Shown here: piece after piece, positions 8,144-49,413 of the stretch | How the letters are laid out: each line of letters starts with the position of its first letter | How positions within the stretch are numbered: position 1 is the first letter of the stretch | DNA from: a candidate division FCPU426 bacterium | GTDB lineage: Bacteria; Oederibacteriota; Muellerivitia; Muellerivitales; Muellerivitaceae | DNA length: 64,000 nt | Direction of reading: 5' to 3' | Assembly (NCBI GenBank): GCA_023249615.1 | Contig: JAHFCG010000001.1 | Span: 2,257-66,256 of the forward strand | Made by a program: the position numbers and the translations under genes | The notes under the pieces: model-generated | Database searches by the model: none | Seen by the model: only the letters and a program-made list of their open reading frames with translations | Told to the model about the DNA's origin: nothing

Positions 8144-8893
8144 TCAATCCAACCCCAGGGCTTTTTTCAAATCATCCAAACGTTCCCGGCTTACCGGCAG
8201 GCGTGTTTTGGCCGTGTCGGATAAAACCGCCATGTATTTCCTGTCCCCCTCATGGTCCAACTCCTTCAGGTAATCCAGGTTGATGATGGCGCTCCGGTGG
8301 ATCCTCAGGAATTTTTCGGGATCCAACCGCTGGGCAAGGGCGTCCAGCCGGTCATCCGCCAGAAGCTCCTGGCCTTCCACCAGCAAAAGGGCGTAATGGT
8401 CCTTGGCCACAATGGCGGAAACCTGGGTTGGGTTAAACACCCGGTACTTGGCCCCGCACTTGATGGCCATCCGCCTTTTCGCGTTTCCTTCCTCCATTTT
8501 TTTGAAGAATTCCCTGCGGTCGGTCTGGGTTTTAGGATTTTTTCTTTTCCGGATTCTTTCAATGGTTTCACCCAGTCTTTCGGGTACCACGGGTTTGACA
8601 AGATAATCCACGGCCGAAAGTTCAAATGCCTTCAGCGCGTGTTCGCTGTAGGCCGTGACGAAAACCACCGCTGGTCCTTCCCCGCCCCAGGCCTCGGCAA
8701 CTTCCAGGCCGTTGAGCTCCGGCATCTCGATATCCAAAAAGACCAGATCCGGCTGAAGTGTTTGCGCGACCTGAAGAGCCTCCAAACCATTGGAGGCCTC
8801 GCCGACAACCTTCAGGTCCGAAAAAACCGCCAGCATCCTGGCAAGCCGGGAACGGGCGGGTGCTTCATCATCCACAATCAGGGCCTTAATCAT
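8144..8893 (-). CDS. Response regulator with an N-terminal receiver domain and a C-terminal LytTR DNA-binding domain
   Basis: MIKALIVDDE...DLVFLDIEMPELNGLEV receiver motifs; the C-terminal half is LytTR-like; it overlaps the upstream kinase by 4 nt. Confidence 0.85.
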   Translation of the reverse strand: MIKALIVDDEAPARSRLARMLAVFSDLKVVGEASNGLEALQVAQTLQPDLVFLDIEMPELNGLEVAEAWGGEGPAVVFVTAYSEHALKAFELSAVDYLVKPVVPERLGETIERIRKRKNPKTQTDRREFFKKMEEGNAKRRMAIKCGAKYRVFNPTQVSAIVAKDHYALLLVEGQELLADDRLDALAQRLDPEKFLRIHRSAIINLDYLKELDHEGDRKYMAVLSDTAKTRLPVSRERLDDLKKALGLD

Positions 8894-10236
8894 TTCTCCT
8901 CCTTAACCGAGGGATCGGTGGTTAAAAGCGGCAGGGTCATCAAAACCCTGGTTCCCCCGCCTTCACGACGGGCAATCTCAAGACGGCCTTCTTTTCCAAA
9001 ACTTAAATCAAGGCGTTTTCGGCAATTCTCAAGGGCGGTTCCAGAGCCTGAGTAATTGGAGTTGCCAAAACCAACCCCGTCATCCTCCACCCATAATTCC
9101 AGATTTTCCTTTTTCAATTCCGCCCCCACGGTAAGGTTGCCGCCTGATGCCCGCGAGGAAAGCCCGTGCTTTACCGCGTTTTCCACCAGGGGCTGAAGCA
9201 ACAGAACGGGAACGAATATTTTTCCCGCGTCCAATCCCCTTGCCGGTTTAATCTTCGCCTTCAGGCGGGACCCAAAGCGGACCTGCTCAATTTCAAGGTA
9301 ATCCTTGCAAAAACCCAGTTCCTTCGCAAGAGGATGATAGGATTTTTCACTGGACGCCAACACCCCCTGGTAAAGCGCCGACAGCCTCACCACCACCTTT
9401 TCCGCCTTGGCCGGATCATCGTGGATAAGGGAAGCCACGGTGTTCAGGGTATTGAAAAGAAAGTGGGGATTCATTTGATCCTTTAATTTTGTCAGCAGAG
9501 CCTGGAGCCTTTCCTTTTCCAGTTCTTCCGTTCGCAACTTGCTGGATCTCGCGGCGTCCTTCAGGTCCTGCCAGGACATGAAAAGAAAACAAAGGAGGAG
9601 AAGGGTCCAAACCCAAAAAACCTCCGTCCCGTAATACTGCCAGTGGAACTCGACGGGGATAGGATCCCCGGCGTAATACCAGTTGATTAACGCCAGCTTG
9701 ATATGAAAATCCAGGTACAATCCGGCCGGGGCCACAAAAGCCAATAAAAGCAAAAACCATCCGGTGCCGTGCCGGGGAATGTTTCTTTGGGCGTGAAGCG
9801 CCCAAAATTTTTCCACGGTCAAAAAGACCTTTGTCATCGCCATGCCGAACAATCCGACTAGGGAGGCCTCGAAAAAACTCCAGCCCCAACGGAAAAGAAT
9901 CGAGGAAACCGTGCGGTTTCCTAAAAGGAAACTGACCAAAAGGGTCAAAATCGGGTTCCAAAAAAGGAACAGTTTGAGAAAGGAAACGGCGAACCGGTCC
10001 TCAAAATCCAGGGAAAAAAAAATTTTCCAGTTCCGGCTCATCTTTTCGTTCCTTTGTGTTTCGTTTCCCGGGGCCTCGATCGTTTCCCCGGGGGGACTTT
10101 TTTGAAAAAGCCTGATTAACCCCCGCGAAATGATAGCAACACCCGGAAAAATACCTAGGTTGATTTTTTCATCGGTCATAACCCCTTGTTTCCCTCCGAG
10201 TAAAAAAGACCCGTCGGGGAAAGGCGCCCCGCCCAT
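8890..10236 (-). CDS. LytS/YehU-type sensor histidine kinase (multi-TM N-terminal domain, His_kinase and HATPase_c)
   Basis: Contains ...MNPHFLFNTLNTVASLI (His_kinase H-box) and ...GLSSRASGGNLTVGAEL...DDGVGF (ATPase). The probable real start is at MSRNWKIFF (about 10041), because the upstream extension translates intergenic hairpins. Confidence 0.8.
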   Translation of the reverse strand: MGGAPFPDGSFLLGGKQGVMTDEKINLGIFPGVAIISRGLIRLFQKSPPGETIEAPGNETQRNEKMSRNWKIFFSLDFEDRFAVSFLKLFLFWNPILTLLVSFLLGNRTVSSILFRWGWSFFEASLVGLFGMAMTKVFLTVEKFWALHAQRNIPRHGTGWFLLLLAFVAPAGLYLDFHIKLALINWYYAGDPIPVEFHWQYYGTEVFWVWTLLLLCFLFMSWQDLKDAARSSKLRTEELEKERLQALLTKLKDQMNPHFLFNTLNTVASLIHDDPAKAEKVVVRLSALYQGVLASSEKSYHPLAKELGFCKDYLEIEQVRFGSRLKAKIKPARGLDAGKIFVPVLLLQPLVENAVKHGLSSRASGGNLTVGAELKKENLELWVEDDGVGFGNSNYSGSGTALENCRKRLDLSFGKEGRLEIARREGGGTRVLMTLPLLTTDPSVKEEK

Positions 10237-10283
10237 TCCCCCTTCTTAAAATACCGCAGTAAAAAAAGGGCCTAAAAACGAAT

Positions 10284-10352
10284 CCTTGAGGGGACGGAAA
10301 ATCTCCCCCAGCGGACGGAGTCCCCCATAAGGGGGAGCTCAATTCCCCTCAA
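10284..10352. repeat. TTGAGGGGA ... TCCCCTCAA inverted repeat enclosing the gTCCCCCataaGGGGGAgc hairpin
   Basis: Reverse-complement copy of the CCCCTCAAGG motif found at 7977. Confidence 0.5.
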
Positions 10353-10442
10353 AACCCTGTGATATACTGCCCGTCCCCAATAGTCCCAGGATAAATTCCA
10401 GGTTTAAAACCGTTGTTTTAATGCGACGAAGGGGTAAAGGAA

Positions 10443-11615
10443 TTGGAATTGAAGACCATCTACCGGTACGTTTTAATCGAAATGATGCCGGCTTTTTTAC
10501 TTGGCGTAACCCTTTTAACTTCCCTTTTTATGATCAACAAGGTCGCTCTCCTCCTGGATTTGCTATTGAATAAAAATGTCAATTTGGGGGATACACTCCT
10601 GCTTTTCCTCAGCCTCCTTCCCATGATTCTTTCCCTCACCATTCCCATGTCCATGATGGTGGCAACCTTGCTGGCGTTCGGCCGATTAAGTTCCGACATG
10701 GAGGTGACGGCTTTCAAGACCAGCGGCGTCCACCTTTTCCGCCTGATTGGTCCGGTTTTACTTTTAAGTTTTCTCCTGACCCTTTTCATGATTTTTTTCA
10801 ATGACACGGTATTGCCCGCGGCCAATTCCACCTTCAAGAAGGTTCATTACCGTATCCTTCGTGATCAGGCCCATATCGCCATCAAGGAAAGGGTGTTCAT
10901 CGACAAATTTGAGGGATACCAGTTTTACATTGACCGGCAGGACAGGGAGGGCTTGTTTTCGGACGTGAAAATGTTTTTTCGATGGTCACCCCAGGCCTCG
11001 ATTCAGACGGCGCTTTCCAAAACCGGAAGACTCGAAAACGACCCGTCCACGATGCAGCTTTTTTTCCACATGAACAACGGAACCATCAACTGGGACAACC
11101 AAAACTTCCACACCTACAACCGCCTCTACTTTGAACGATTCACCACCAGGTTGAACCTGGAAAACCAGCTGGCCGGTATGACGGACCAAAAAAAGAATTT
11201 TGAGGAAATGACACTGAAGGAGCTCTCGGGGGAAATAAAAACCGCGCCGGAGCCTTCCCGAAGGTCCTCTTTGAAAAATGAATTTCACAAACGTCTTTCA
11301 CTTCCCGTCGCCTGTCTGGCCTTGACCTGGTTCTGCGCTCCCCTGGGTCTTTGGCTTCGGTTCAAGGGGTTTATCGGGTTCGTAATAAGTCTCGCGATGA
11401 TTTTCATTTACTATCTCATGTTCGACCTTGGACAGGTTTTATGCGAGCGGGGCCTGGTCCAGCCCCTCGTGGGTTTCTGGTGGGCGAACGGAATATTGAT
11501 TCTTGGGGGAACCCTTGTTTATTACCTCCTGATTACCGAGGGAGCGGCGTTTAAAGGCGGAAACGGTTTGACCTCCCCGGGTCTTCCTCGAAAAACAGCG
11601 GGACAGGCGTCATGA
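10443..11615 (+). CDS. lptF: LPS export ABC permease LptF (YjgP/YjgQ family)
   Basis: YjgP/YjgQ-like membrane topology with a large periplasmic loop; followed by a paralog overlapping by 4 nt. Confidence 0.7.
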   Translation: MELKTIYRYVLIEMMPAFLLGVTLLTSLFMINKVALLLDLLLNKNVNLGDTLLLFLSLLPMILSLTIPMSMMVATLLAFGRLSSDMEVTAFKTSGVHLFRLIGPVLLLSFLLTLFMIFFNDTVLPAANSTFKKVHYRILRDQAHIAIKERVFIDKFEGYQFYIDRQDREGLFSDVKMFFRWSPQASIQTALSKTGRLENDPSTMQLFFHMNNGTINWDNQNFHTYNRLYFERFTTRLNLENQLAGMTDQKKNFEEMTLKELSGEIKTAPEPSRRSSLKNEFHKRLSLPVACLALTWFCAPLGLWLRFKGFIGFVISLAMIFIYYLMFDLGQVLCERGLVQPLVGFWWANGILILGGTLVYYLLITEGAAFKGGNGLTSPGLPRKTAGQAS

Positions 11616-14381: not shown

Positions 14382-15716
14382 TTACGATTCCTTTTTAATA
14401 GAGTCCATATCCACGATGGCGCAGGTGATCTCCGCTTCCACGGCGGTCTGCCCGTCAACAATGGCCTTACCCGCGATTTTTCCTATTTTGGACCGGACAA
14501 ACAAAACCTCTATCTCAAACCTGATCTGGTCCCCCGGCATGATGGGTTTACGAAACCGGGCGTTATCCACTCCGGCCAAATACAAAATCTTTCCCTTGTT
14601 CGCGGGTTCACAAAGAAAGGCGATTCCCCCCGCCTGGGCCATGGCTTCAATCACCAGGACCCCCGGCATGATGGGATGCCCCGGAAAGTGCCCCTGAAAA
14701 AAGGGTTCGTTGATGGTGACGTTCTTGACGGCCACCACCTTTTTGTTGGGTTCCAGCTCCAAAATCCTGTCGACCAAAAGAAAAGGGTACCGGTGGGGCA
14801 GTATTTTTTGGATTTCCAAGATGTCTAACATGGGTCTCTCTCCCGATTCTTTTTTTGTTTTTTCCGCGCCATTTCCAAATTTTTCCAGAATGGCTTTCGC
14901 CAGTTCCACGTGATATCGATGCCCCGCCTTTCGGACGGTTACCTTCGCCCAAAGAGGGCGGTTCAAAAGTTTCAGATCCCCCAGTAAATCCAGGGTCTTG
15001 TGGCGGACAATTTCATCCTCATGGCGGAGGGGGCCGTTCACAATCCCCTTTTTTCCCATCACGACCGCGCAGGAAAAATCCCCGCCCTTGATGAGTCCCT
15101 GACGGCGCAATTCCTCGATTTCTTCCTCGAAACAAAAGGTTCGGGCCTGGGCCAACTCCTTTTCAAAACTTCCATCTTTTAATTCAAAAACCCGGTTCTG
15201 GTTTTCCAACCCGGGATAGGGAAAGGAAGTCGTCACATCAAGAAACAAACCCTCCGCCGGCTCGACCTTTAGTGAAACATCTTTGAAATTCACCTCAAAA
15301 GAATCCGTAACCTTCAGGGGTGTGGCGGGTGTTTCCTGATCCAAAATACCGGCTTTGTTAAAATATCCGCAAAAAGGAACAGCGCTTCCATCCAAAATCG
15401 GCATTTCCTCGGCGTCCATCTCCACTTTTAGGTTATCCAAACCAAAACCGTGAACGGTCGCTAAAAAATGTTCCACGGTATGAATACTTGCCTTCTTTTC
15501 CCCTGTCAGCGTGGTTCCCCGGGCCGTGTTGGTGACCGAAAAGGGGGAAAGGGGAATTTTAGCCCCTAAATCGCTCCGGATAAAAAGGATTCCGGAACCC
15601 GGCGGCAGGGGGGAAACCGTGACCTTGCATTTTTTCCCGGTGTGCAACCCTATTCCTTCGAATGAAAAAGGGCTTTTTATTGTTTTTTGGGTCCTAATTC
15701 CCTTTTCACTTTTCAT
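14382..15716 (-). CDS. lpxC/fabZ: Bifunctional LpxC deacetylase / FabZ dehydratase fusion
   Basis: The N-terminal half is LpxC-like ([17 protein letters not shown]...HTVEHFLA) and the C-terminal half is a FabZ hot-dog ([14 protein letters not shown]...[13 protein letters not shown]). Confidence 0.85.
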
Positions 15717-17549: not shown

Positions 17550-17930
17550 TTAACCGCCCGCCAATTTCAGGAATTTTTCCAAAACTTCCCGGAAATGCGG
17601 GTGCATCGTGAGAAAGCGGAGTCCGTATTCATACCGGCCCAAATTCGGGAAATTTTGATGATTAGCACGGACAACCTCGGCCTCTGCCCTGACCATTTCC
17701 CGGAATTCCTCAAGCGGAAACTCAACCTCAATGGCTGATTGAACTTCCAGAAAATTTTTGGTGGTTAAAAAAAAACCGGTCCGGCTGATGTTGGACATGG
17801 TGTTGTTTCCATTGTGAAGCTCCGGCTCTGGGGACTCCCCAACCGGGGATTTGAGAAGGCGAAAACGCATGTGAATGCGGACAGGAAACCTTTGGGCGAT
17901 TCGGTTATCCGCTGGAAAAGGTCCGGCCAT
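17550..17930 (-). CDS. PilZ-domain protein (partly degenerate c-di-GMP motifs)
   Basis: QRFPVRIHMRF and NISRTGFFL sit at the PilZ RxxxR / DxSxxG positions; the protein ends ...LAGG. Confidence 0.6.
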   Translation of the reverse strand: MAGPFPADNRIAQRFPVRIHMRFRLLKSPVGESPEPELHNGNNTMSNISRTGFFLTTKNFLEVQSAIEVEFPLEEFREMVRAEAEVVRANHQNFPNLGRYEYGLRFLTMHPHFREVLEKFLKLAGG

Positions 17931-17932
17931 CC

Positions 17933-18322
17933 TTACCCACCCGTCTTAAAATAATCGTTCAACTTCTTTAGGTCTTCCTCATAAACCGGGATGAACTGAA
18001 TTCCCGAATTAAATTCCCCCTTTGAACTTCCCTCCCGGGGGCGGCACCAAATGACCTTCGCGACCGTTCGGATCAAACCAACCTTGGGAATATCAACTTC
18101 CAATTCGAGGACACTTCCACTTTGAAAAGGTTTATCGGAAACCACCTGCAACCCCCCCAGGCTTAAATCCTGGATCTCGGCCTTTAAACCTAGGGTTGGA
18201 TCCTTGACATCCTTTTCCAGGTTTTCAATCTGAAAAATCTTATATCGGACCGGGACTGATAAATTTACGCGGTTGTCTCTTCGATTCTCCAGTTGCATGG
18301 GGCAAACTTCCGAAAAAAACAT
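17933..18322 (-). CDS. PilZ-domain c-di-GMP receptor
   Basis: RRDNRVNLSVPVRY (RRxxxR) and DLSLGGLQV (DxSxxG) motifs; the protein ends ...KTGG. Confidence 0.7.
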   Translation of the reverse strand: MFFSEVCPMQLENRRDNRVNLSVPVRYKIFQIENLEKDVKDPTLGLKAEIQDLSLGGLQVVSDKPFQSGSVLELEVDIPKVGLIRTVAKVIWCRPREGSSKGEFNSGIQFIPVYEEDLKKLNDYFKTGG

Positions 18323-20140: not shown

Positions 20141-20483
20141 TGGTGGAGGTGGTGGGAATCGAACCCACGTCCTGAAAAACATCCGTAATGGGCACTACGT
20201 GCGTAGCTCCGGAATGAGTCTCGCTCTCCGCTCGCTCCCGAGCGGCCGGCGAAGAGCCAGTCCCTTTGGTTCTCGTCCGCTCATCGGTGGAACAACCCTG
20301 TTGCGGACCAGCCTACTACTTACGTCCCGTTCCCTTAATAGGCATCAAGGACAAGACGCTAACCGCTTTAAGCGGCCAGAGCTAACTGATTGTCGGCAGT
20401 TAAACCGTTGCCATGTTTGACGAGCGATGGCGCCTCGACACGCACCCAAAAGTTCAGCTTCCCAGTCGAAACCGGTCACCCCC
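20141..20483 (-). ncRNA. ssrA: tmRNA (SsrA), one-piece
   Basis: The minus-strand 5' end is GGGGGTGACCGGTTTCGACTGGG and the 3' end is GGTTCGATTCCCACCACCTCCACCA (tRNA-Ala-like T-arm/acceptor + CCA). The internal tag ORF GCC GAC AAT CAG TTA GCT CTG GCC GCT TAA encodes ADNQLALAA* (20368-20397). Confidence 0.9.
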
Positions 20484-20527: not shown

Positions 20528-20953
20528 TTACGGCTTAATCCCCAGTTTCTCAAGGACGGCCGGAATATCCCTTATTTCCACATGACTGAGCCAAATGTTA
20601 TCAGGAAAAATCATCACATTCGCGCCTTCTTCGCAGACATCAAGGCACTTTGATTTGGAAACCCTTATCTTTTCCACCTGACCAGCCGCCTTAACGGCCT
20701 CCTTAAGCTTCTCCGAAAGTTCCTTGCCGCAAAATGTCGCGCCGCAAGAAACCCGTTCCCCGGGCGCCCGTTCATTCACGCAGACAAATACATATTTTTC
20801 AAATTTGGGTTCAGATTGTTCCATGTCCGCTCTTTCTTTTCGAGGCTGACGCAGGGGCGGGTCTAAGACCCGCCCCTTCAAAATCAACACCCAACCAAGG
20901 GCGAGGCATGCCTCGCCCCTACAACAACACCCACCGCGATAATTCCTTTCCAA
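20528..20953 (-). CDS. Thioredoxin-like [2Fe-2S] ferredoxin (NuoE/24 kDa-like)
   Basis: Contains CVNERAPGERVSCGA...CLDVCEEGANVMIF. The probable real start is MEQSEPKF at about 20824, because the upstream 43 codons translate GC hairpins. Confidence 0.65.
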   Translation of the reverse strand: MERNYRGGCCCRGEACLALGWVLILKGRVLDPPLRQPRKERADMEQSEPKFEKYVFVCVNERAPGERVSCGATFCGKELSEKLKEAVKAAGQVEKIRVSKSKCLDVCEEGANVMIFPDNIWLSHVEIRDIPAVLEKLGIKP

Positions 20954-20982
20954 ATCGTAGGGGCGGCACGGGGGCCTGCCCC
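20852..20982. repeat. Cluster of three tandem GC-rich palindromic units (AGGGGCG...CGCCCCT), REP/BIME-like
   Basis: aggggcgggtctaagacccgcccct; agggcgaggcatgcctcgcccct; aggggcggcacgggggcctgcccct. Confidence 0.55.
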
Positions 20983-20995
20983 TATAGAACCAAAT

Positions 20996-21415
20996 TCATT
21001 CACCCATGACCTTTAAAATAACTCTCTTTTTCCTTTTTCCGTCAAACTCAGCATAGTAAATCTGCTGCCAGGTTCCAAAATCTAGTTTCCCTTCCGTAAC
21101 CGGAACAACCACTTCATGGTGGACCAAGATGCTTTTCAAGTGTGAATCACCGTTATCTTCCCCCGTCTGATGATGCCGGTAATTTTCCTTAAAGGGCGCC
21201 AGCTTTTCCAGCCACTCATCAATATCTGCGATCAATCCGTTTTCCGCGTCATTGATATAGACACCCGCAGTTATGTGCATTGCCGAAACCAGGACCATTC
21301 CTTCCTTGATTCCGCTTTTCCTGACGGCTTTTTCCACATCGTTGGTGATATTAATATATTCCCGGTGGTTTTTTGTGTTAAACCAAAGATATTCCGTTAA
21401 GAATTTCATTTCCAA
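20996..21415 (-). CDS. YjbQ/UPF0047 family protein (secondary thiamine-phosphate synthase-like)
   Basis: ~139 aa; ...[23 protein letters not shown]...[15 protein letters not shown] is characteristic of YjbQ. Confidence 0.7.
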
Positions 21416-21421
21416 CTCCTT

Positions 21422-22237
21422 TTATTTCCAAACCACCAACACAAGCCCCCCAAGAATTAGAAAAGCCCCAAAACCCCGGGATTTCCAACCCTGTTTTTCA
21501 CCCAATAGAAAATAACTTAAAACAAACCCGACTACCAGATTGAAGCGAACCAATGGACTAACCTGGCTTAAGGGTGCCATTTGAAGGGCCGCGTAAAAAA
21601 CAACGGTTGAAACGGCCGAGAACAAAATCAGAAGCCAATTCACTCCGAGGTTTCGAACAACCGCTTTGACTGAAGTCGTCCTTCCTTTTAAACCCCCAAG
21701 GGTTAAAAGTACGGCGCCGATCAAAAAAGCAAAACAGGAGTGAAGTAAAAATCCGCTTTCGGGAAGGGCCAATTTGCTGAATACCCCGCTTAAGGAACCG
21801 ATCAACGCGGCGCCAAGCCCCCACCAGGACCAATGACCCCGGTAGTAAAGCCAAATGGCCCCCGCCACCACCAAAAAAACTCCCAACCAGAGGCTTGGGC
21901 TGATCGTTTCCCTTAAAAACAGCAAAGCCCAAAAGGCGCTGAAGAAGGGTGTCACATTGCTTAAAGCGTAGGTGGAATAATAATCCCTCCTGGCCCCGCG
22001 GGTAAGCGCCCAAAGGCTCGCGCATTCCATGGTTCCGCTCATCGTGGTAAAAATCCACCACTTCAGCGATAAAGTTTTGAGGGAAAATAACGCGAAGGGC
22101 ATGAGGGCCAAAGCAACTCCCCATCTCATGCTGACGGTGAAGGTTAGGGCTCCTTCTTTTTGAACCCGCCCCTTGATCTGGGAGCTCCAGACAGCGTTCA
22201 AAACCGCGGAGGTTAGTGTGAGCCAGACCCAGGTCAT
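21422..22237 (-). CDS. EamA/DMT-family transporter (10 TM)
   Basis: Hydrophobic duplicated 5-TM architecture, ~271 aa. Confidence 0.7.
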   Translation of the reverse strand: MTWVWLTLTSAVLNAVWSSQIKGRVQKEGALTFTVSMRWGVALALMPFALFSLKTLSLKWWIFTTMSGTMECASLWALTRGARRDYYSTYALSNVTPFFSAFWALLFLRETISPSLWLGVFLVVAGAIWLYYRGHWSWWGLGAALIGSLSGVFSKLALPESGFLLHSCFAFLIGAVLLTLGGLKGRTTSVKAVVRNLGVNWLLILFSAVSTVVFYAALQMAPLSQVSPLVRFNLVVGFVLSYFLLGEKQGWKSRGFGAFLILGGLVLVVWK

Positions 22238-22318
22238 ATATTATCCTCTTGGTCATTATTTAGGGGCGCGATTCATCATGCCCTTGGCGCCTTAAAAGCC
22301 GCGCCCACAGGATGGAAT

Positions 22319-23143
22319 TCACCCGATCGCGACCAAAAACAATCCCGTTAATATCAATCCCCCGCCCAGCGCCTTTTGCTTCCAACCTGTTCTTTCTTTC
22401 AACAAAAAGTAACTAAAAAAGAACCCAAAAAGAAGATTAGCCCGTACCAAGGGATTAATCTTGGACGCGGGTGAGTGGCTTAAAGCGACATAGAATAAAA
22501 CTGAAGCGAGGAAGGACCAAAAAGCCGGAGCAAGGATTTTTTTCCATTCCTTTACCATGATCTTGGGCCGCAAACGGGAGTTCGCCAGACTTTCCAATGG
22601 GACGAGGAACAATGCACCAATCCCGAAAGACCAAAAAGCGAAAAACATCGGAGGTGAATCAGCCAAAGCCATTTTATTCACGATAACACCCGCCGTGGAA
22701 AAAACAGCTCCCCATAGACCTCCCCAGGACCATCCGCCCATCCGGTGAAAAATAAAAGCTCCCATGGCGATAAGAATTCCCCCGGCGACCAGGGATCCTG
22801 ATTGGGCCTCACCTAAAATAATTGGCGCGGCCAGTACCGTAAAAAAGGGCGTAAGATTATAAAAGGCGTAGGTGGTGTAATAATCTTTTTGCACCCCCCT
22901 GACCAGCATCCAGGTTCTCAATCCCTCAAAAAAACCAGCGAGAAGGGTTAATCCCCACCATTTTAAGGAAAGGGGCCAAGTCCACTGAAACAAGGCCAAG
23001 GGAAGGAGCATCAGGGCCGTCAAAAGACGAAAGACCAGGGTGAACTCTCGGGGAGAAACCCGATGTAAAATTTTCTTGGAAAGGGCCGTCCAAAGGGCGT
23101 TAAAGAAGCCGGCCACCACCGCCATCCCGAGCCACAGCATCAA
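22319..23143 (-). CDS. EamA/DMT-family transporter, tandem paralog
   Basis: Same architecture and similar local motifs as the neighbouring transporter. Confidence 0.7.
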   Translation of the reverse strand: MMLWLGMAVVAGFFNALWTALSKKILHRVSPREFTLVFRLLTALMLLPLALFQWTWPLSLKWWGLTLLAGFFEGLRTWMLVRGVQKDYYTTYAFYNLTPFFTVLAAPIILGEAQSGSLVAGGILIAMGAFIFHRMGGWSWGGLWGAVFSTAGVIVNKMALADSPPMFFAFWSFGIGALFLVPLESLANSRLRPKIMVKEWKKILAPAFWSFLASVLFYVALSHSPASKINPLVRANLLFGFFFSYFLLKERTGWKQKALGGGLILTGLFLVAIG

Positions 23144-23157
23144 AGCACGACCCTTTT

Positions 23158-23255
23158 AGCCACCGATGAATGGGATGAATACGGATACCCAAAAGGGAAT
23201 TTCCTGTTTTTCAAAAAAAGATTTAAAGCCATCTGTGTTTATCGGTGTTCATCGG
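23158..23255. repeat. Related element: GCCACCGATGAA ... TTATCGGtgttcATCGGTGGC (phased ATCGG repeats, outer 12-bp inverted repeat)
   Basis: ATCGG at 23241 and 23251; the inverse arm is at 23158-23169. Confidence 0.5.
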
Positions 23256-23259
23256 TGGC

Positions 23260-23685
23260 TCAATGGCTTGCGATTGGTTCTTCGTCGAACTGTTCCTTGT
23301 CATTCAATACCCATGATTTCATAGAGGTGAACTTACCCTTTTGGATGGACATGATGACGTAGGAAAAACCAGGCCAAGCCGCCTGTCGGTCTGTTTCCGA
23401 GGCTTTATCAGTGTGATCAGGATGGGAATGGAATATCCCCAGAACATCCAATCCCTTTTGCCGGGCGAGGGCTTCCCCCTTCATATAATCTTTAGGATCC
23501 ATGTCATATCGGGTTTCGGGCTTGAGTTTATTCAGGTTGCCGCATTCAAAAACTTCCGTGACGACACGGGGTTCCCCCGCCTTTCCAAACATAAACCCGC
23601 AAATCTCATAGGGATATCCCTTTTCGGCAATAGCGATCATGACTTTCTTCGCCTGTTCATTTTTAAAAGAAATCATTATTCCCAC
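23260..23685 (-). CDS. JAMM/MPN+ (Mov34) metalloprotease, Mec+/QbsD-like
   Basis: EICGFMFGK...FHSHPDHTDKASETD fits the JAMM ExnHxHx7Sx2D motif. It overlaps the upstream cysteine synthase by 10 nt. Confidence 0.8.
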   Translation of the reverse strand: MGIMISFKNEQAKKVMIAIAEKGYPYEICGFMFGKAGEPRVVTEVFECGNLNKLKPETRYDMDPKDYMKGEALARQKGLDVLGIFHSHPDHTDKASETDRQAAWPGFSYVIMSIQKGKFTSMKSWVLNDKEQFDEEPIASH

Positions 23686-24626
23686 ACTCTTGTCGATAAA
23701 TATTTATCTCCAGAGTCCGGGAAAATGGTGACGATGCAACCCTTTTTAATCTCCTTCGCCAATTGAACGCAGCCCGCCATCGCGCCTCCGGAAGAAAGAC
23801 CCGCCAGGATTCCCTCTTTGCGGGCCAAGACCTTCACCCATTCGTAACTTTCATCCGTATCAATATCAATATGCTGGTCATAGGAATTCTTGTCATAAAT
23901 CCCAGGCACGATGGAGGAGGCCATGTGTTTCAGCCCTTCCAACCCATGGAAAGGCTGGGACGGTTCCATGGCCACTACCTTAATAGATGGTTTCATTTCC
24001 TTTAGGCGCTTTCCTGTTCCGATGAGGGTTCCGCTGGTTCCAATTCCCGCCGCGAAATGAGTGATCCTATCTCCCAACAATTCCATGATTTCCTCGGCGG
24101 TCGTGAGCGTATGCGCTTTTGGATTTTCGGGATTGTTGTATTGGTCGGGGACAAAATATTTTTCAGGGTCTTTTTTATAAAGTTCTCGCGCCAAAAGAAT
24201 GGCGCCGTCCGACCCTTCCATCTCGCTGGAAAAGTGGACTTCGGCGTTAAAAGACTTCAAGATTCGTTTGCGTTCATCACTGACGTTGGCAGGAAGAGCC
24301 AAAACCACCCTGTAACCAAGGGCCGCCCCGATCATGGCGTAAGCGATACCGGTATTACCCGAGGTCGCGTCAAGGATGGCTTTGTCCTTCGTGAGCTTCC
24401 CGTTTTTGAGACCTTCCTGAATCATTCGCAGGGCGGGACGGTCCTTGACGGATCCGCCGGGGTTGAAGGACTCGAGCTTGGCGAAAATTTCAACACCAGG
24501 CACATTATGGGAATGGATCTGAACCATGGGGGTGCGGCCGACTAATTCCGTGACGCTTTCGAAGATTCTGGGTGGATTGGAAATGGAAACAGCCACGGAA
24601 ACCTCCTTAGGCACATCTAGCACCAA
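23676..24626 (-). CDS. cysM: PLP-dependent cysteine synthase (CysM/CysK family)
   Basis: ...GRTPMVQ...KLESFNPGGSVKDRPA...TSGNTGIAYAMIGAALGY. The probable true start is a GTG at about 24596, preceded by an AAGGAGGT Shine-Dalgarno. Confidence 0.85.
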   Translation of the reverse strand: MVLDVPKEVSVAVSISNPPRIFESVTELVGRTPMVQIHSHNVPGVEIFAKLESFNPGGSVKDRPALRMIQEGLKNGKLTKDKAILDATSGNTGIAYAMIGAALGYRVVLALPANVSDERKRILKSFNAEVHFSSEMEGSDGAILLARELYKKDPEKYFVPDQYNNPENPKAHTLTTAEEIMELLGDRITHFAAGIGTSGTLIGTGKRLKEMKPSIKVVAMEPSQPFHGLEGLKHMASSIVPGIYDKNSYDQHIDIDTDESYEWVKVLARKEGILAGLSSGGAMAGCVQLAKEIKKGCIVTIFPDSGDKYLSTRVWE

Positions 24627-24716
24627 GACTCCAAGCCACCAAGAAAATATTTTATTTCAGGAGCCTGTTTCCAATCCAATTTTCAAAATCTTGGCGTCTT
24701 GGAGTCTTGGAGCTAG
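24617..24716. repeat. Inverted-repeat element with CCAAGACNCCAAG arms around an AT-rich core (family copy 1)
   Basis: Left arm ctagcaccaagactccaagccaccaagaaa; right arm aatcttggcgtcttggagtcttggagctag. Confidence 0.6.
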
Positions 24717-24724
24717 ACTTGGTG

Positions 24725-26044
<1,320 letters not shown>

Positions 26045-26241: not shown

Positions 26242-27798
26242 TTGTTCATGCACACTCCCCTGCCAAAACTCAACCCGCGTTACGGCCTTTCGGCCTTTCT
26301 CGCGGGCGCCGTCGTTCTTTTTATCGAGCTGGCCGGGACAAGGCTTCTCGCCGCCGTTTTCGGCTCAAGCCTTTACGTTTGGTCCGCGCTTATTACCGTC
26401 ACACTTCTTTCCCTCGCGGCGGGGGCCTGGTGGGGCGGTTGGTTCGCCGACCAATGGGAAAGTCCTAAGGTTCTTTCTCTTCTCTGGTTTTGTTCCGCCC
26501 TAACGATGGGTATGGTGGTTCCCCTGAGGGGACTCATCTTTCCCCTCGCCGACCAGGTTGATTTGAGAATCGGGGTCCTTCTTTGCTCCCTTCTTCTTTT
26601 TTTCATGCCCTTGGCTTTTCTCGCCGCGGTCCCACCCGTCCTCATCAAATTAATGAATCCCGATCACCGGCATTTGGGCCGGGTGGTGGGAAAAATTTCA
26701 GCCCTCGGCACCGCGGGCAGTTGTTTCGGGGCAATTGCCACAGGATTTTATCTGGTCCCCAGCTTTCCCCTTACCAAACTTTTCCTTTATTTGTCACTCC
26801 TCCTTTTCCTGGCCGGAATAATCTCCTCATGGAAAACGGGAAATAAATTAACTAAAGTTCTTCTCCTTTTTTCCTGGATAGGTTGTTTGCTTTTATTCTC
26901 CCCCGAAAGAAATCTTTCCCTTATAGGAAACCGCGCGACATCGGCCGACCTTGAAATAAACCAAAGTCTATACGGACAGCTTCAGGTAATGGAGGAGGAA
27001 TCCAAACGTCTATTATTCCTGGACGGAATTTTTCAAGGTGGAATGAAGTACCCCTCAGGAGTTTCCCTGACACAATACACGGCCACCATGGAAATCCTGG
27101 GATTATCCGCCGTCCCGAACCCGGGGAACATTCTGGTTATCGGCCTCGGATCGGGTGTTATCCCATCCGACTTTCATAAAAAAGGGCTAAACGTTGAGGC
27201 GGTGGAAATAAATCCCCAGGTCGTTGATCTTTGCCGAAACTGGTTTGATTTGCCGTTGCCCATTGAAAAAATTCACCGGATGGATGGCCGGCAATACTTG
27301 AAGGGTTCACGGGAAGCTTTTGATTTGATTTTTTTGGACGCGTTCGCGGGGGAGGAAATGCCGGCCAATCTTCTGACCCTCGAGGCGTTTCAATCGGCTC
27401 GAAATCATCTGTCAGACCAGGGAGCGCTTTTATTGAATTATGTCGGTTTTTCCCAACCGCCTTCTTCTCGGGTTTTATCGACGATTACCGCCACCTTGAA
27501 AAAGGTTTTCCCATCCGTTGGCATTTTTAGGGCGGGAGACAAGGAAAGTATCGCCAATTTTATCGTTGTCGCACGGGTTAAAGAGGGGCCTTGGAGTCCC
27601 ACTCCGGATATCCCCTGGGGGAACAATGAAACCGCCAGTCTTTCAAAAATTCTGGGGAACCTTGTCCAGCCGGACGAACCCTACCCCTTTCTCATTCGTG
27701 ATGATTATTCCCCGCTGGAATGGCTGGATAGGAAAACAAGATTTGCCTGGCGGGAAAAATGCGTGGGTTTGATGCAGTTAGCACAAACGGGGCTTTAA
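26242..27798 (+). CDS. Fused polytopic membrane domain + spermidine-synthase-like (aminopropyltransferase fold) protein
   Basis: ~7-8 N-terminal TM segments followed by ...ILVIGLGSGV...FDLIFLDAF, a SpeE-like Rossmann motif. Confidence 0.65.
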   Translation: MFMHTPLPKLNPRYGLSAFLAGAVVLFIELAGTRLLAAVFGSSLYVWSALITVTLLSLAAGAWWGGWFADQWESPKVLSLLWFCSALTMGMVVPLRGLIFPLADQVDLRIGVLLCSLLLFFMPLAFLAAVPPVLIKLMNPDHRHLGRVVGKISALGTAGSCFGAIATGFYLVPSFPLTKLFLYLSLLLFLAGIISSWKTGNKLTKVLLLFSWIGCLLLFSPERNLSLIGNRATSADLEINQSLYGQLQVMEEESKRLLFLDGIFQGGMKYPSGVSLTQYTATMEILGLSAVPNPGNILVIGLGSGVIPSDFHKKGLNVEAVEINPQVVDLCRNWFDLPLPIEKIHRMDGRQYLKGSREAFDLIFLDAFAGEEMPANLLTLEAFQSARNHLSDQGALLLNYVGFSQPPSSRVLSTITATLKKVFPSVGIFRAGDKESIANFIVVARVKEGPWSPTPDIPWGNNETASLSKILGNLVQPDEPYPFLIRDDYSPLEWLDRKTRFAWREKCVGLMQLAQTGL

Positions 27799-30730: not shown

Positions 30731-30840
30731 AACCGCCAAGACGCCAAGGGCGCCAAGAACGGCAAATTCAAAAGCACACACATTTTAAACCCTTTTGTTT
30801 AAAGGGAATTTTTTTCTTGGCGCCCTTGGCGTCTTGGCCG
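30731..30840. repeat. Inverted-repeat element of the CCAAGACGCCAAG family (copy 2), with a 27-bp near-perfect stem
   Basis: accgccaagacgccaagggcgccaagaa ... ttcttggcgcccttggcgtcttggccg. Confidence 0.65.
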
Positions 30841-36038: not shown

Positions 36039-36653
36039 TTACTTGACCTTTATCGCCTGAAAAATGGCCCTTAACGAAACCGCGTCCGGTACCAGCAGAA
36101 AGTAACCCCCAATAACCTCATGAGCGTCAATGAATTTGGTTTCTATGCAAATTACCTTGGTGTCGTCATCCATCCCCTGGGTTAGGGAGGTCAATAGGGC
36201 CCCCGCCATGTCAAAAACCAGGGTTGGAACTGAAATAAGAAGAAGCATTCCGAGAAATTCATTCAAGGCGCTTAAATAGGCGCCGGTCAAAATATTCCCA
36301 GCCTCTTTAATGGCCGAATGACCCATCTCGGTAAGAATCTTGCTGGTTCCGACTTCCTGTTTAAGAAGCATATCCGCCAGGTGAAGGGCCGAATCCCGGG
36401 GAAAAAGCAAAACGATTTTTCCGGTTGCGTCGCCAAGGATGGCCAAGGTCAACCCGGCTACCAACGTGTTGGGGTCGCCCACAAGACGTGGAACCTCCGA
36501 AAGGGAAAGAATATTGGCCTTGGGAACAGTAATATGGATTTTTTTTCCGAGAAGCTGGGACAAAGCCGTGGCGCCATGGCCGGCGCCGATGTTGCCCACT
36601 TCCTTCAGGGCATCCAATTGGCTGGGCGTCAACTGGTCGAGATTAAGAAGCAT
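36039..36653 (-). CDS. cheC: CheC/CheX-family CheY-P phosphatase
   Basis: LDALKEVGNIGAGHGATALSQLLGKKI... duplicated CheC repeats. Confidence 0.8.
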   Translation of the reverse strand: MLLNLDQLTPSQLDALKEVGNIGAGHGATALSQLLGKKIHITVPKANILSLSEVPRLVGDPNTLVAGLTLAILGDATGKIVLLFPRDSALHLADMLLKQEVGTSKILTEMGHSAIKEAGNILTGAYLSALNEFLGMLLLISVPTLVFDMAGALLTSLTQGMDDDTKVICIETKFIDAHEVIGGYFLLVPDAVSLRAIFQAIKVK

Positions 36654-36677
36654 TCGAAAAATCCTTTTTCCAAAATC

Positions 36678-38894
36678 CTATAAACCCTCATGGGTCCCCA
36701 GGGGTATGATCCCCTGGTGCTCTTCCTGGAAACGTCTTTCCTTTAAATCCTCAATCAAACTATTGACGTCCAGAATCAACGCTATCTTACCACTCCCAAG
36801 GATGGTTGCGCCCGAAAAACCTCGGATGCCCTTCAGAAGCCTGTCGAGGGATTTTATGGCGATTTCCTGCTGGCCGATCACTTCGTCCACCAAAATTCCA
36901 ACACGAGACTCCCCCACTTCCGCCACCAGGACCGTCTCCAAACCCGTTTCAAGGGCCGGCCCGGGGGGAATAGCCATCTCAAGAAGTTCCTGAAGATGGT
37001 AAAGCGGAATGACTTCATCCCGCAAAATAAAAGTCTCCTGTTGTTGAATAATCCTTTTCTCATCCGTGTGGATATCCACGGTTTCAATGATGTTGACCAC
37101 GGGGATAACAAAAACCTCCTCGTTACATTTGACCAGGAGTCCCTTGATGATGGCGAGGGTCAAGGGAAAACGTAAAATAAAGGTGGTTCCTAATCCCTTC
37201 CGGCTTTGAATCCGGAAAGTTCCGCCAAGCGCCTCCACCTTCGTTTTGGCGACGTCCACTCCAACCCCCCGGCCTGAAACCTCGGTCGCGTTATCAATGG
37301 TGGAAAAACCCGGCAAGGCAATCAGGCGGACGGCCTCCTCGTCGGTTAATCGTATGGCTTCCTCGCGCGTAATCAGACCTTTCATAACCGCCTTCTTTCG
37401 GACCAATTCAGGATCAACTCCCCTTCCGTTGTCGATTACCGACAGGATAACGAAATGTCTTTCCCTCTTGGCCTGAAGCCGGATGGTTCCCGCGGGGTCC
37501 TTCCCTTCCTTTTCCCGTTCCTCCGGGATTTCAATCCCGTGGTCAATCGCGTTTCGGAGCAAATGAACCAGTGGCTCACTCATTTCCTCGATAACCGTCC
37601 TGTCCAATTCCACCTCAGCCCCGTCCATTTCAAGGTCCACCTGTTTATGAAGTGATTTTGCCAGGTCCCTGACCATCCGGGGAAAACGGTCAAAAATTTG
37701 CTTAACAGGCATGAGGCGGACCTTCATGATTTCGTCCTGAAGTTCATCGGTAATGTGATGAAGTTGAAAAAGGGGATCCAACAATTCCTTTAATTCTTTC
37801 TGGTGTACCACCTGTTCAAATCGGATTTTTGAGATGACCAATTCCTGAACCAAGGCCATTAACTTGTCGAGTTTAGAAGTGTGAACACGAACCGTGGGCA
37901 GGATAAAAGTCCTTTCGTCGGACCCCGTGGTTCTGGAAACCTGGGTTGAACCCTTTGAATCCGTCGGTTCCTCGGATTCCGCGTCGGTTTCCGTTTTGCC
38001 GAAATCCGACTCACGGCGGCCGGGACTCCGTTCGGGCAATACCTTAAAAGGATTTGATTTTGGAGTTTCCGATTCCTTCTTTTTAAAAACAGCCTCATGG
38101 TCCTCGTCGGGGCTAAAGGAATCGATTTGAACTTTTTCAACCTCGCTTATCCCCGTCAAGGTCTTTTTGATTTTTTCCTCAGGACTGTCGGTAACGACGA
38201 CCAGAAAAAAGCCCCTCTCGAAATGCCCCTTTTCTATTTCCTGCGGCGCCGGGTGGCTCTTTACGATTTCGCCAAGTTCATTAATGGCTTTTAAAATCAT
38301 GAAGGAGCGGACCTCCTTAAAGGCGCAATCCCTTTCCAATTCCACCATGATTTTGAATACCGAAAAACCGTTCATACGGGCCTGGGAAATCACATCCCTT
38401 TCCTCGTCCGTAAAGGGCAGGGCCACTTCCTGAACCACCTCCACCACGGGCTCCACAGGCGAAGCCGCTCCCCGGAGGGCCTCCGAGGCCTCCTGAAGGC
38501 TGGTGAGGGTGGCTTTTAAATCATCTTCCTCCAGCGAGTCATTGGACGAAAGGATGTTGACCCACTTCTCCAGTTGGTCCAGACAAATGAAAAGAGCGTC
38601 AACCAGTTGGGGCGTCAGGGGTTTGACCCCTGAACGAATGGGTTCCAGCACCGTTTCCATTTGGTGGGTGAGCTGTGCCATGGGTTCATATCCCATGGTG
38701 GCCGACATGCCCTTGATGGTGTGCGCGGCGCGGAATATCTCGTTGATGGACTCCCCGTGTCCCGGATCTTTTTCAAGAACCACGAGGGAATTGTTGAGGT
38801 TCGCGAGGTATTCCCTCGCCTCAGTCAGGAAAATTTCCTTATAGTCACTGCTTTTCACGATGGCTCCAGGGAAAAGGGAAAATGGCAATGGCAT
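36678..38894 (-). CDS. cheA: Chemotaxis histidine kinase CheA (HPt, dimerisation, HATPase and CheW-like domains)
   Basis: HTIKGMSATMGYE HPt motif, HATPase_c G-boxes, and a C-terminal CheW-like domain. Confidence 0.9.
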   Translation of the reverse strand: MPLPFSLFPGAIVKSSDYKEIFLTEAREYLANLNNSLVVLEKDPGHGESINEIFRAAHTIKGMSATMGYEPMAQLTHQMETVLEPIRSGVKPLTPQLVDALFICLDQLEKWVNILSSNDSLEEDDLKATLTSLQEASEALRGAASPVEPVVEVVQEVALPFTDEERDVISQARMNGFSVFKIMVELERDCAFKEVRSFMILKAINELGEIVKSHPAPQEIEKGHFERGFFLVVVTDSPEEKIKKTLTGISEVEKVQIDSFSPDEDHEAVFKKKESETPKSNPFKVLPERSPGRRESDFGKTETDAESEEPTDSKGSTQVSRTTGSDERTFILPTVRVHTSKLDKLMALVQELVISKIRFEQVVHQKELKELLDPLFQLHHITDELQDEIMKVRLMPVKQIFDRFPRMVRDLAKSLHKQVDLEMDGAEVELDRTVIEEMSEPLVHLLRNAIDHGIEIPEEREKEGKDPAGTIRLQAKRERHFVILSVIDNGRGVDPELVRKKAVMKGLITREEAIRLTDEEAVRLIALPGFSTIDNATEVSGRGVGVDVAKTKVEALGGTFRIQSRKGLGTTFILRFPLTLAIIKGLLVKCNEEVFVIPVVNIIETVDIHTDEKRIIQQQETFILRDEVIPLYHLQELLEMAIPPGPALETGLETVLVAEVGESRVGILVDEVIGQQEIAIKSLDRLLKGIRGFSGATILGSGKIALILDVNSLIEDLKERRFQEEHQGIIPLGTHEGL

Positions 38895-38953
38895 TTTAAC
38901 CTAATTTGGGGAAAATTGATTTGGTTGGATGTTTAAAGCGGTGTTTGTGATTA

Positions 38954-40048
38954 CTATCGGCGGTTTAAAAGCGCGTTTATTTCCTGGGCCATTTGGGACA
39001 GGGGTACCTGCCGGTCCACCATTCCCGAATCCACCGCGGCCTTGGGCATCCCGTAAACCACGCAGCTGCCGGCGTCCTGGGCGAACGTTTTTCCCCCCAC
39101 GGCATGAATATCCTTCAAACCCGCGGTTCCGTCCCTGCCCATTCCGGTCAGGATAACTCCCATGCATTGCTTGCCCGCTGTTTTGGCTACAGAGCTCATC
39201 ATGATATCGGCGGAGGGTTTTACGCCCAGCCTTGGGGGGTGATCATTAAAACCAAACTTGTAATGCCCGGCACCTCCCTCAAGAACCAGGTGAAGGCCCG
39301 CCGGGGCGACATAAGCGTGGCCCCCCATGAGATACTCTCCATCCTCCGCCTCTGAAACCTCCAGGCGGCTGACCTCACCCAGGCGCCTGGCCAGGGCTTT
39401 CGTGAAACCCACCGAAATATGCTGAACAATCACGAAAGCGACGCTCGAACTCCGGTTTAAATTGGAAAACAATTCATTGAGCGCCCTGGGCCCTCCGGTT
39501 GAGGAGGCCACCGCCACGATAAAAGTGGCCGGTTTATCCCTTTCAACCGTTTCTGGTTCGGCAGGCTTGACATTTTTTTTTACCGTGGATTCGGCGGAGA
39601 CTCCTTCCAATTCCTTGTTTCGGCGGGGCTTGCAAAGGGAGGCCATTTTTATTTTCTCGACCAATTCTCCCTGGATTGCCTTGGCGTTTTCCAAAACGCG
39701 CCCTGCCGGTTTACCGATACAATCGATGGCTCCCAGTTCGAGGGCCCTGATGGTTGTTTCGGTTCCCTTGCCTGTATGGCTGGAGATCATGACAACGGGA
39801 GTTGGCGAATCCTTCATTATTTTTTCGAGGGCGGCCAACCCGTCCATCTTGGGCATTTCCACGTCGAGCGTGATGACGTCCGGTTTCAACTTTTTGGCTT
39901 TTTCGACCGCCTCGAGCCCGTTCTGGGCGGTGTCCAAGACGGTGATTTCCCCATTGGTGGTATTCAGGATTTCAGACAGGATTTTTCTCATGAAAAAAGA
40001 ATCGTCGACGATAAGAACACGGATGGTTTTGGATTTTTCAGCCGTCAT
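38954..40048 (-). CDS. cheB: Chemotaxis methylesterase CheB (REC + CheB_methylest)
   Basis: IRVLIVDDSFFMRK receiver followed by a methylesterase domain (GASTGG...). Confidence 0.9.
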   Translation of the reverse strand: MTAEKSKTIRVLIVDDSFFMRKILSEILNTTNGEITVLDTAQNGLEAVEKAKKLKPDVITLDVEMPKMDGLAALEKIMKDSPTPVVMISSHTGKGTETTIRALELGAIDCIGKPAGRVLENAKAIQGELVEKIKMASLCKPRRNKELEGVSAESTVKKNVKPAEPETVERDKPATFIVAVASSTGGPRALNELFSNLNRSSSVAFVIVQHISVGFTKALARRLGEVSRLEVSEAEDGEYLMGGHAYVAPAGLHLVLEGGAGHYKFGFNDHPPRLGVKPSADIMMSSVAKTAGKQCMGVILTGMGRDGTAGLKDIHAVGGKTFAQDAGSCVVYGMPKAAVDSGMVDRQVPLSQMAQEINALLNRR

Positions 40049-40104
40049 GGAGGTTCCCGGTCAAATTACGGTTTGTCTTAAAAAGCTCAAAACGACTTTT
40101 GCCG

Positions 40105-40184
40105 CCGATCAAATCCGATACACGCCGATAAATCAAAATTATTTTTTACAGTTTGTAGTAATCGGCGTCCATCGGAAGTTATCG
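40105..40184. repeat. Palindromic element made of three 10-bp-phased CCGAT units, an AT-rich spacer, and three 10-bp-phased ATCGG units
   Basis: gCCGCCGATcaaaTCCGATacacGCCGATaaatc...gtaATCGGcgtccATCGGaagttATCGGCGGttg. Confidence 0.6.
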
Positions 40185-40207
40185 GCGGTTGCTTTTTTTC
40201 TTAACTT

Positions 40208-41105: not shown

Positions 41106-41117
41106 CTCTTGGGTCGC

Positions 41118-42234: not shown

Positions 42235-42301
42235 AGGATCTGCCTTTCGGGGTTCCGTGTTCGGGTCGAGACGATTGAAGACTGATCAACACTGGGGGGG
42301 T

Positions 42302-42664: not shown

Positions 42665-42758
42665 GACTTCCTCCCCAAACTAAATTTTGAATTTTTAATT
42701 CTTAATTTTTAACAGGCGACCCAATCAAGAATTTAAAATTAAACATTAACAATAGCTT

Positions 42759-43097: not shown

Positions 43098-43104
43098 GGA
43101 ATTC

Positions 43105-47980: not shown

Positions 47981-48010
47981 GAAAGGTCCTTGTCCGTTTG
48001 TAGCGCTCCC

Positions 48011-49382: not shown

Positions 49383-49413
49383 GTCAATCCCCTTTCAAGG
49401 ACGAATTTTTTCT

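Follow-up and report, generated by a model that had tools for sequence, protein, structure and literature searches.

The stretch of DNA analysed here, called the window, comprises 64,000 nucleotides of contig JAHFCG010000001.1 (positions 2,257 to 66,256 of the forward strand; GenBank assembly GCA_023249615.1) from an uncultured soil bacterium of candidate division FCPU426. Coordinates are positions in the window unless a locus of another genome is named. On the minus strand, a gene for a CysM-type, pyridoxal phosphate (PLP)-dependent cysteine synthase is followed directly at its 3' end by a gene for a JAMM/MPN+ zinc metalloprotease. The pair most likely belongs to a known type of pathway, the protein-thiocarboxylate-dependent synthesis of cysteine, in a minimal gene layout and in an uncultured phylum. 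The biochemistry of this pathway was worked out in Mycobacterium tuberculosis: MoeZR thiocarboxylates the carrier protein CysO, CysM adds the aminoacrylate derived from O-phosphoserine to CysO-COSH, and Mec+ hydrolyses the resulting CysO-cysteine adduct (PMC3227635).

Gene pair and gene starts

The features of the pair are the following.

23676-24596, minus strand: cysM-like gene for a PLP-dependent cysteine synthase, 306 amino acids (aa) from GTG 24596, stop codon TAA at 23678-23676
23260-23676, minus strand: gene for a JAMM/MPN+ (M67) zinc metalloprotease, the Mec+-like partner, 138 aa from ATG 23676
23674-23678, minus strand: TAATG junction of the cysM stop and the JAMM start, read from the sequence
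24602-24608, minus strand: Shine-Dalgarno sequence AAGGAGG, lying 5 nt before the start codon GTG 24596 of cysM

The maximal open reading frame (ORF) of cysM extends to TTG 24626, a codon that lies within a 104-nt hairpin described below. The likely start is GTG 24596, which stands behind the perfect AAGGAGG and from which the N-termini of the orthologs align. The start of the JAMM gene was placed at ATG 23676, with an overlap of 1 nt (TAATG), because the N-termini of all homologs in the alignment read MI.F, matching this ATG, and because independent gene calls on identical DNA give a 138-aa JAMM, with the end of cysM and the start of JAMM on the same base. The preliminary description of this locus had reported an overlap of 10 nt; that figure holds only with the upstream GTG 23685, while the tight coupling itself stands. 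To judge from the junction, cysM and JAMM are tightly coupled, and the JAMM is described as co-translated.

The JAMM protein

The frame at 23260-23685 matches Pfam Prok-JAB (PF14464; 78 bits, cutoff 25; 6e-22), and the frame at 23676-24626 matches Pfam PALP (PF00291) with 221 bits (3e-65), so that the identities first assigned to the two genes from the letters alone were borne out. The catalytic motif of the JAMM, which had been singled out for checking by alignment, is complete and consists of the glutamate of YPYEICGF together with HSHPDHTDKASETD, which reads HxHx7Sx2D. Its residues are invariant or nearly so over 12 aligned homologs, and invariant in both FCPU426 JAMMs aligned (P0010 and P0044) and in eight other homologs. 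Across 12 FCPU426 genomes the JAMM is 65-90% identical and CysM 72-86%. The JAMM is thus about as conserved as CysM and keeps its catalytic residues, and is therefore no decaying relic.

An AlphaFold model of the JAMM (predicted local distance difference test score 88.9) has the MPN fold. Its top match in the PDB is 5LDA, Pyrococcus furiosus JAMM1 (PfJAMM1) with the ubiquitin-like (Ubl) protein SAMP2, at template-modelling scores of 0.79/0.84, followed by the bacterial structural-genomics MPN proteins 2KKS and 2KCQ and then by Rpn11 and BRCC36. The nearest structures, read as Ubl-specific isopeptidases led by PfJAMM1-SAMP2, were counted in favour of a carrier-dependent role. With the archaeal JAMM1 desampylases (Haloferax HvJAMM1 and PfJAMM1) the protein shares the catalytic motif and the closest solved fold (5LDA/5LD9), but only 27% of the residues aligned with PfJAMM1 in the structural alignment are identical. 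The characterised desampylases remove SAMPs from protein conjugates and are not known to have a cysteine synthase partner. The desampylase model NF041370 is the closest curated model.

The CysM protein and its clade

The best NCBIfam models for CysM are cysM TIGR01138 (355 bits) and cysKM TIGR01136 (341 bits). The segments SVKDRPA (with the PLP lysine), TSGNTGIA (asparagine loop) and GIGTSGT (phosphate loop) align with those of M. tuberculosis CysM, E. coli CysM and E. coli CysK, the three references used, each of which is 100% identical to a PDB chain. The substrate loop is of the short CysM type, being one residue longer than in the E. coli and M. tuberculosis CysMs, while the CysK loop exceeds it by 12 alignment columns.

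The relationships of the JAMM-linked CysMs and the three references were examined with a MAFFT alignment and a neighbour-joining tree. JAMM-linked CysMs of all three gene layouts described in the next section form one clade, which excludes all three references and extends over Bacteroidota, Thermodesulfobacteriota, Dadabacteria, FCPU426 and an archaeon. Within it, the FCPU426 CysM is sister to the CysMs linked to tusA (class B below). The CysM of the window is 70-83% identical to its FCPU426 orthologs, 46-59% identical to these tusA/thiF-linked CysMs, 40-49% identical to the cysO-linked ones (class A) and 37-39% identical to the three references. Thirteen residues are specific to the clade, in that they occur in at least 90% of its members and differ in all three references. 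They cluster in the substrate loop HG(L/I)EGxKH, which reads FHGLEGLKH in the window and serves as a marker of a distinct JAMM-linked CysM clade. No biochemically characterised member of the clade was found in the literature searched.

The preliminary description had proposed to read from the active site whether O-phosphoserine or O-acetylserine is the substrate. The lysine of the loop aligns with M. tuberculosis Arg220 and E. coli Arg210, and Lys-His is kept at this position in at least 90% of the JAMM-linked CysMs; the positive charge is thus retained, but the residue itself differs.

Three gene layouts in related genomes

A scan of species-representative genomes with the JAMM alignment gave 80 loci, 78 of them with an intact JAMM. 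The closest, at 72-90% identity, are metagenome-assembled genomes (MAGs) labelled candidate division FCPU426. In 49 of the 78 loci, which belong to several phyla, cysM lies directly upstream on the same strand, an adjacency far beyond chance. Three layouts can be told apart among these 49 loci.

Class A (19 loci) has the order cysM-JAMM-cysO, with a ThiF-type E1 (adenylating enzyme) also present in 17 of the 19. It occurs mainly in Bacteroidota (Chitinophagales and Flavobacteriales included), and also in Balneolales, Sericytochromatia, Acidobacteriota and an archaeon (loci within L025-L081). The one class A E1 scanned, from L050, consists of ThiF with a C-terminal rhodanese domain and is MoeZ-like. 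The cysO product has 91-95 aa, belongs to the Pfam ThiS family and contains IPTPLRKFT...PAIAGG followed by 0-5 residues; its best PDB match is M. tuberculosis CysO (3DWG_C, 1e-13). Residues beyond the Gly-Gly (1-5 of them) are usual on these CysO-like carriers, with ends such as AGGSIK, AGGKN, AGGC and AGGTVIDL; examples next to the JAMM gene lie at 10575-10856 of L050 and 10430-10717 of L070. The extensions suggest that the JAMM may also mature the carrier. Class A reproduces the M. tuberculosis-type cluster, its CysM being of another lineage.

Class B (16 loci; Thermodesulfobacteriota, Dadabacteria and HR37) has the order tusA-cysM-JAMM. A short MoeB-like E1 gene (thiF) lies downstream in 10 of the 16 (L026, L027, L031, L033, L041, L044, L049, L052, L057 and L075, at about 8800-11250 in most), and the two such E1s scanned are 273 aa long with a single ThiF domain and no rhodanese. 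No ThiS-family gene was found within 10 kb in any of the 16 loci. Class B looks like a split version of the cluster, in which the persulfide carrier TusA and a short E1 take the place of the E1-rhodanese fusion. A cis-encoded Ubl protein (19 loci) and TusA (16 loci) are mutually exclusive among the 49 loci.

Class C (14 loci) is the bare cysM-JAMM pair, found in 12 FCPU426 genomes with an intact JAMM and in two marine MAGs. The two genes are linked in all 12 complete FCPU426 loci and adjacent in 11. The exception, L008, carries a gene for a 327-aa protein at 8994-9977 between cysM and JAMM and is the sole split pair; the N-terminus of the inserted protein is hydrophobic and, judged by eye, resembles a signal peptide. 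The locus P0079, with 62% identity, has kept the gene order of the FCPU426 loci, topA-argB-nrdR-DUF1015-enolase-cysM-JAMM-EamA-YjbQ, again with a bare pair; the copy in P0084 is frameshifted and lies where its contig ends.

Outside these layouts, Aquificota JAMM homologs (45-48% identical) are unlinked to cysM. Relatives within the clade have neighbours that, judged from their sequences, are sulfite reductase, CysH-like and CobA-like genes. In an archaeal MAG (L043, 7090-8037) the frame after the JAMM gene, where the contig ends, matches both ThiS and ThiF and is apparently a fusion of carrier and E1. In a Planctomycetota MAG (L067, 10302-12017) the CysO profile matches an open frame of 1.7 kb (3e-27).

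Search for a carrier, an E1 and TusA

The search for a carrier covered about 80 kb of the host genome. Nearly every gene of the 64-kb window was scanned with Pfam, and none matched ThiS, ThiF or TusA; the domains found belong to lipopolysaccharide, chemotaxis, TPR, housekeeping and other genes. A listing of small ORFs in the intergenic gaps of the window contained no plausible candidate, and neither the CysO profile nor jackhmmer searches seeded with ThiS, MoaD, CysO, MoeB-like E1 and TusA matched anything in six-frame translations of the window. Look-ups of exact proteins from the same organism added about 14 kb of flank beyond both ends of the window, and no carrier or E1 was found there. 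Among the 120 listed of 8000 candidates that the CysO profile gave in a set of 5.8 billion proteins, none was recognised as an FCPU426 carrier; the few named matches in these 120 all belong to Bacteroidota (Balneolaceae included) or to an unclassified marine bacterium.

The gaps on either side of the pair (23144-23259 and 24627-24724), pointed out in the preliminary description as places to look, hold no ORF of the ThiS/MoaD fold. Both are too short to be carrier sites, and the second is filled by the repeat hairpin. The same description had stated that no protein of at least 60 aa ending in Gly-Gly lies nearby. This is right as far as a carrier is concerned, but two ORFs with such ends are present about 5 kb away, at 17550-17930 and 17933-18322 (minus strand; 126 and 129 aa). 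They are adjacent genes of the PilZ type, as indicated by TIGR02266, matched below its cutoff, and by Pfam PilZ on the corresponding genes in L088. They were rejected as carriers, their Gly-Gly ends not being kept in the orthologs of L009 and L011. One ortholog in L007 ends in GGG; the ends are probably a coincidence. Other small ORFs of the window that end in Gly-Gly are spurious frames.

A further candidate was the C-terminus of CysM itself, an idea that came from several class B enzymes ending in SGG(I/L)WW; some class B members end in SERLWW or SEGLWW. A built-in carrier tail was dropped for the window because the FCPU426 enzymes end in STRVWE, with no Gly-Gly.

Comparison with known systems

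Like the M. tuberculosis set of Mec+ (Rv1334), CysO (Rv1335) and CysM (Rv1336), the window couples a CysM-type PLP enzyme to a JAMM zinc hydrolase. Unlike it, the cluster of the window holds no carrier gene, its CysM does not have the long C-terminal tail of the M. tuberculosis enzyme, and Arg220 is replaced by lysine within the distinct HGLEGxKH loop. The gene order is cysM-JAMM in the window, against mec-cysO-cysM in M. tuberculosis. The MoeZR gene of that species (Rv3206c) lies far from mec-cysO-cysM (Rv1334-1336). MoeZR serves both MoaD and CysO (PMC3227635), and pathway components that are unlinked and shared therefore have a precedent.

With the class A clusters the pair of the window shares the CysM clade and its signature residues, the JAMM family, the order of cysM before JAMM and the coupling of the two genes, but CysO (91-95 aa) and the E1 are absent. 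With class B (for example L026, L031, L033 and L044), whose CysMs form the sister clade, it shares the absence of a cis Ubl gene; the upstream TusA and the downstream short E1 (10 of 16 loci) are not there, and FCPU426 keeps the pair alone.

In Wolinella succinogenes, the HcyS/HcyD/HcyF/MetY system makes homocysteine with a PLP sulfhydrylase, a ThiS-fold thiocarboxylate and a JAMM. Its JAMM trims the residue after the Gly-Gly of the carrier and also releases the amino acid. The PLP enzyme is MetY, an O-acetylhomoserine sulfhydrylase and not a CysM, and carrier and E1 are clustered with it. The extensions beyond the Gly-Gly on the class A relatives of CysO are a likeness to this system.

Interpretation

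We favour the reading, with a probability of about 0.6, that CysM and the Mec+-like JAMM make up one half of a thiocarboxylate pathway of the Mec+/CysO/CysM type, with the carrier and the E1 encoded in trans. CysM would convert O-phosphoserine or O-acetylserine to an enzyme-bound aminoacrylate, which a ThiS/MoaD-fold carrier would attack with the thiocarboxylate at its C-terminal Gly-Gly, an S-to-N acyl shift then yielding a carrier-cysteine amide. The co-translated JAMM would hydrolyse this amide to cysteine and regenerated carrier, and may also trim residues beyond the Gly-Gly of the carrier. In FCPU426 the carrier and the E1, a MoeB/MoeZ-type adenylating enzyme acting with a persulfide donor, would be encoded elsewhere and probably shared with the sulfur transfer of molybdopterin or thiamine synthesis. 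The E1 found in class B implies that its Ubl substrate is encoded at another place in the genome, and a trans Ubl protein is thereby implied for the closest relatives of the pair. The parsimonious reading for FCPU426 is that its pair would likewise use a trans-encoded, Gly-Gly-terminated carrier and an E1.

The analogy to Mec+ and CysM drawn in the preliminary description gained comparative support from the clade with full cysO-moeZ clusters, from the CysO-like relatives and from the likeness of the JAMM model to PfJAMM1-SAMP2. Several points weigh against the favoured reading. CysM is not orthologous to the M. tuberculosis enzyme, to which it is 37% identical and from which it stands on a separate branch of the tree, and the position that selects O-phosphoserine holds lysine instead of Arg220. 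To our knowledge, that M. tuberculosis CysM is the only enzyme biochemically proven to depend on CysO. Both proteins fall short of curated cutoffs (CysM with 355 bits against 394 for TIGR01138 and 341 against 344 for cysKM, the JAMM with 80.6 bits against the 130-bit equivalog cutoff of NF041370). ThiS/MoaD, E1 and TusA are absent from the 64-kb window, from the flank of about 14 kb and from up to 10 kb around the pair in 12 FCPU426 relatives. Finally, FCPU426 and its sister clade are both without a cis carrier, and a change of mechanism in their common ancestor is therefore possible.

CysM might instead be an ordinary cysteine synthase using sulfide or thiosulfate, while the JAMM serves another Ubl system, such as a MoaD-MoaE fusion or a SAMP-type conjugate, and the adjacency is a remnant of an ancestral cysO cluster. 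The absence of a carrier and an E1 in cis would fit this, as would the Aquificota JAMM relatives that lie away from cysM and the insertion of a 327-aa gene that L008 tolerates. Stand-alone bacterial JAMMs with other roles exist, one being the Deinococcus protein DRJAMM, which is reported to cleave MoaD-MoaE (PMC8832034). Yet every FCPU426 locus and no fewer than three further lineages keep the two genes linked, in most cases with stop and start codons that overlap or nearly touch, and the CysM signature is common to the cysO-linked enzymes, which points to a shared specialised function over generic sulfide use. We regard this explanation as unlikely, though one to be taken seriously.

Still less probable, in our judgement, is that FCPU426 and its sister clade work without any ThiS-fold carrier, the sulfur coming from a TusA-type persulfide or the C-terminus of another protein, and the JAMM hydrolysing a different cysteine adduct. 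It would account for the mutual exclusion of cis Ubl and TusA in the 49 loci and for the lack of a Ubl gene within 10 kb in 30 loci of both clades. Against it, the known substrates of MoeB-like E1s, one of which is present in 10 of the 16 tusA loci, are Ubl C-termini, and TusA with a short E1 equals the split form of the rhodanese-fused MoeZ found in cysO clusters (PMC3227635). Moreover, FCPU426 has no TusA nearby either, and STRVWE offers no Gly-Gly for a built-in carrier. We give very little weight to the idea that the product of the PLP enzyme is not cysteine but another beta-substituted alanine, as with SbnA, cysteate synthase or the O-ureidoserine synthases, and that the JAMM acts on a conjugate of that product. 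CysM does score below every NCBIfam equivalog cutoff, the SbnA and cysteate-synthase models match as well, and its substrate loop is unlike that of all three reference enzymes; but the 355 and 341 bits for cysM and cysKM are far above the 209 for SbnA, and relatives in the clade lie beside apparent genes for sulfite reductase and for CysH-like and CobA-like proteins.

If the thiocarboxylate reading with a trans carrier is correct, it places protein-thiocarboxylate-dependent cysteine synthesis in the uncultured phylum FCPU426. The three layouts (full, tusA/thiF and bare pair) would then represent one sulfur-relay cluster with its components split over loci, and the prediction is a trans-encoded, possibly shared, Gly-Gly-terminated carrier. 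For annotation, the absence of a carrier gene beside such a pair need not mean that the pathway is absent. The practical gain is modest and consists in a better annotation of pairs of 'M67 family metallopeptidase' and 'cysteine synthase' in MAGs. Were the carrier-free alternative true, it would mean a new branch of JAMM-dependent sulfur chemistry, with the JAMM retargeted to another sulfur-donating protein or adduct.

Neighbouring genes and the hairpin repeat

The surroundings of the pair contain the following features.

24725-26032, minus strand: enolase (Pfam Enolase_N/C), the co-directional upstream neighbour
24615-24718, minus strand: long imperfect hairpin, a copy of a CGCCAAG-based palindromic repeat, filling the spacer between enolase and cysM
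22319-23143, minus strand: EamA/DMT transporter (Pfam/NCBIfam)
21422-22237, minus strand: EamA/DMT transporter (Pfam/NCBIfam)
20996-21415, minus strand: YjbQ (Pfam/NCBIfam)
20528-20953, minus strand: thioredoxin-like 2Fe-2S ferredoxin (Pfam/NCBIfam)
20141-20483, minus strand: transfer-messenger RNA (tmRNA) gene (Rfam, 173 bits), tag peptide ADNQLALAA

Enolase is kept beside cysM in most FCPU426 loci (L003-L013, L083). L004-L012 likewise have YjbQ and the ferredoxin after the pair, with the EamA genes variably present. Enolase and the genes at 20528-23143 are taken as context of the pair only. The tmRNA gene lies directly downstream of the cysM-JAMM-EamA-YjbQ-ferredoxin string. A consensus scan predicted no terminator-like site in the spacers 23144-23259 and 24627-24724, the hairpins that it listed being within coding regions.

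The hairpin at 24615-24718 folds as RNA with -52.9 kcal/mol (z = -6.2), and further copies lie at 30736-30837 and 63483-63610 of the window. Members of this family are intergenic and about 100 nt long, with arms of CGCCAAG heptamers (consensus AACCGCCAAGACGCCAAGanCGCCAAGaa) and variable loops. The hairpin is not conserved in the orthologous spacers, and none of the other FCPU426 loci fetched contains a member of the family. It is not specific to the cysM-JAMM operon. The family has no Rfam match and may be a repetitive extragenic palindrome or miniature inverted-repeat transposable element (REP/MITE-like), or a protein-binding palindrome. At least 120 metagenome contigs of the Joint Genome Institute (L090-L209) contain exact matches to a 26-base pattern of the two arms; their G+C content is 50-76%, and some have 3-4 copies within 10 kb. 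So widespread a repeat, over such a range of G+C content, was rejected as a tag for FCPU426 genomes, and the metagenome loci that carry it are not FCPU426; one MoaD and one E1 fragment on them are not assignable. A riboswitch or leader upstream of cysM was likewise rejected: no Rfam family reached its gathering threshold, relaxed thresholds returned only generic hairpin noise from microRNA models, and the orthologous spacers show no conservation.

Other features of the window

No Pfam hit is recorded for the 1998-aa ORF at 1883-7879 on the minus strand. The next ORF downstream, of more than 1431 aa (1 to about 1660, minus strand), runs off the start of the window, which is why the first 1.9 kb appear free of ORFs. 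Three gene fusions were also noted: LpxC with FabZ/FabA at 14382-15716, a fused MFS/spermidine-synthase-like protein at 26242-27798, and a T2SSE/PilB-type ATPase with TPR at 49414-51717, inside a chemotaxis/TPR block that spans 36039-51717.

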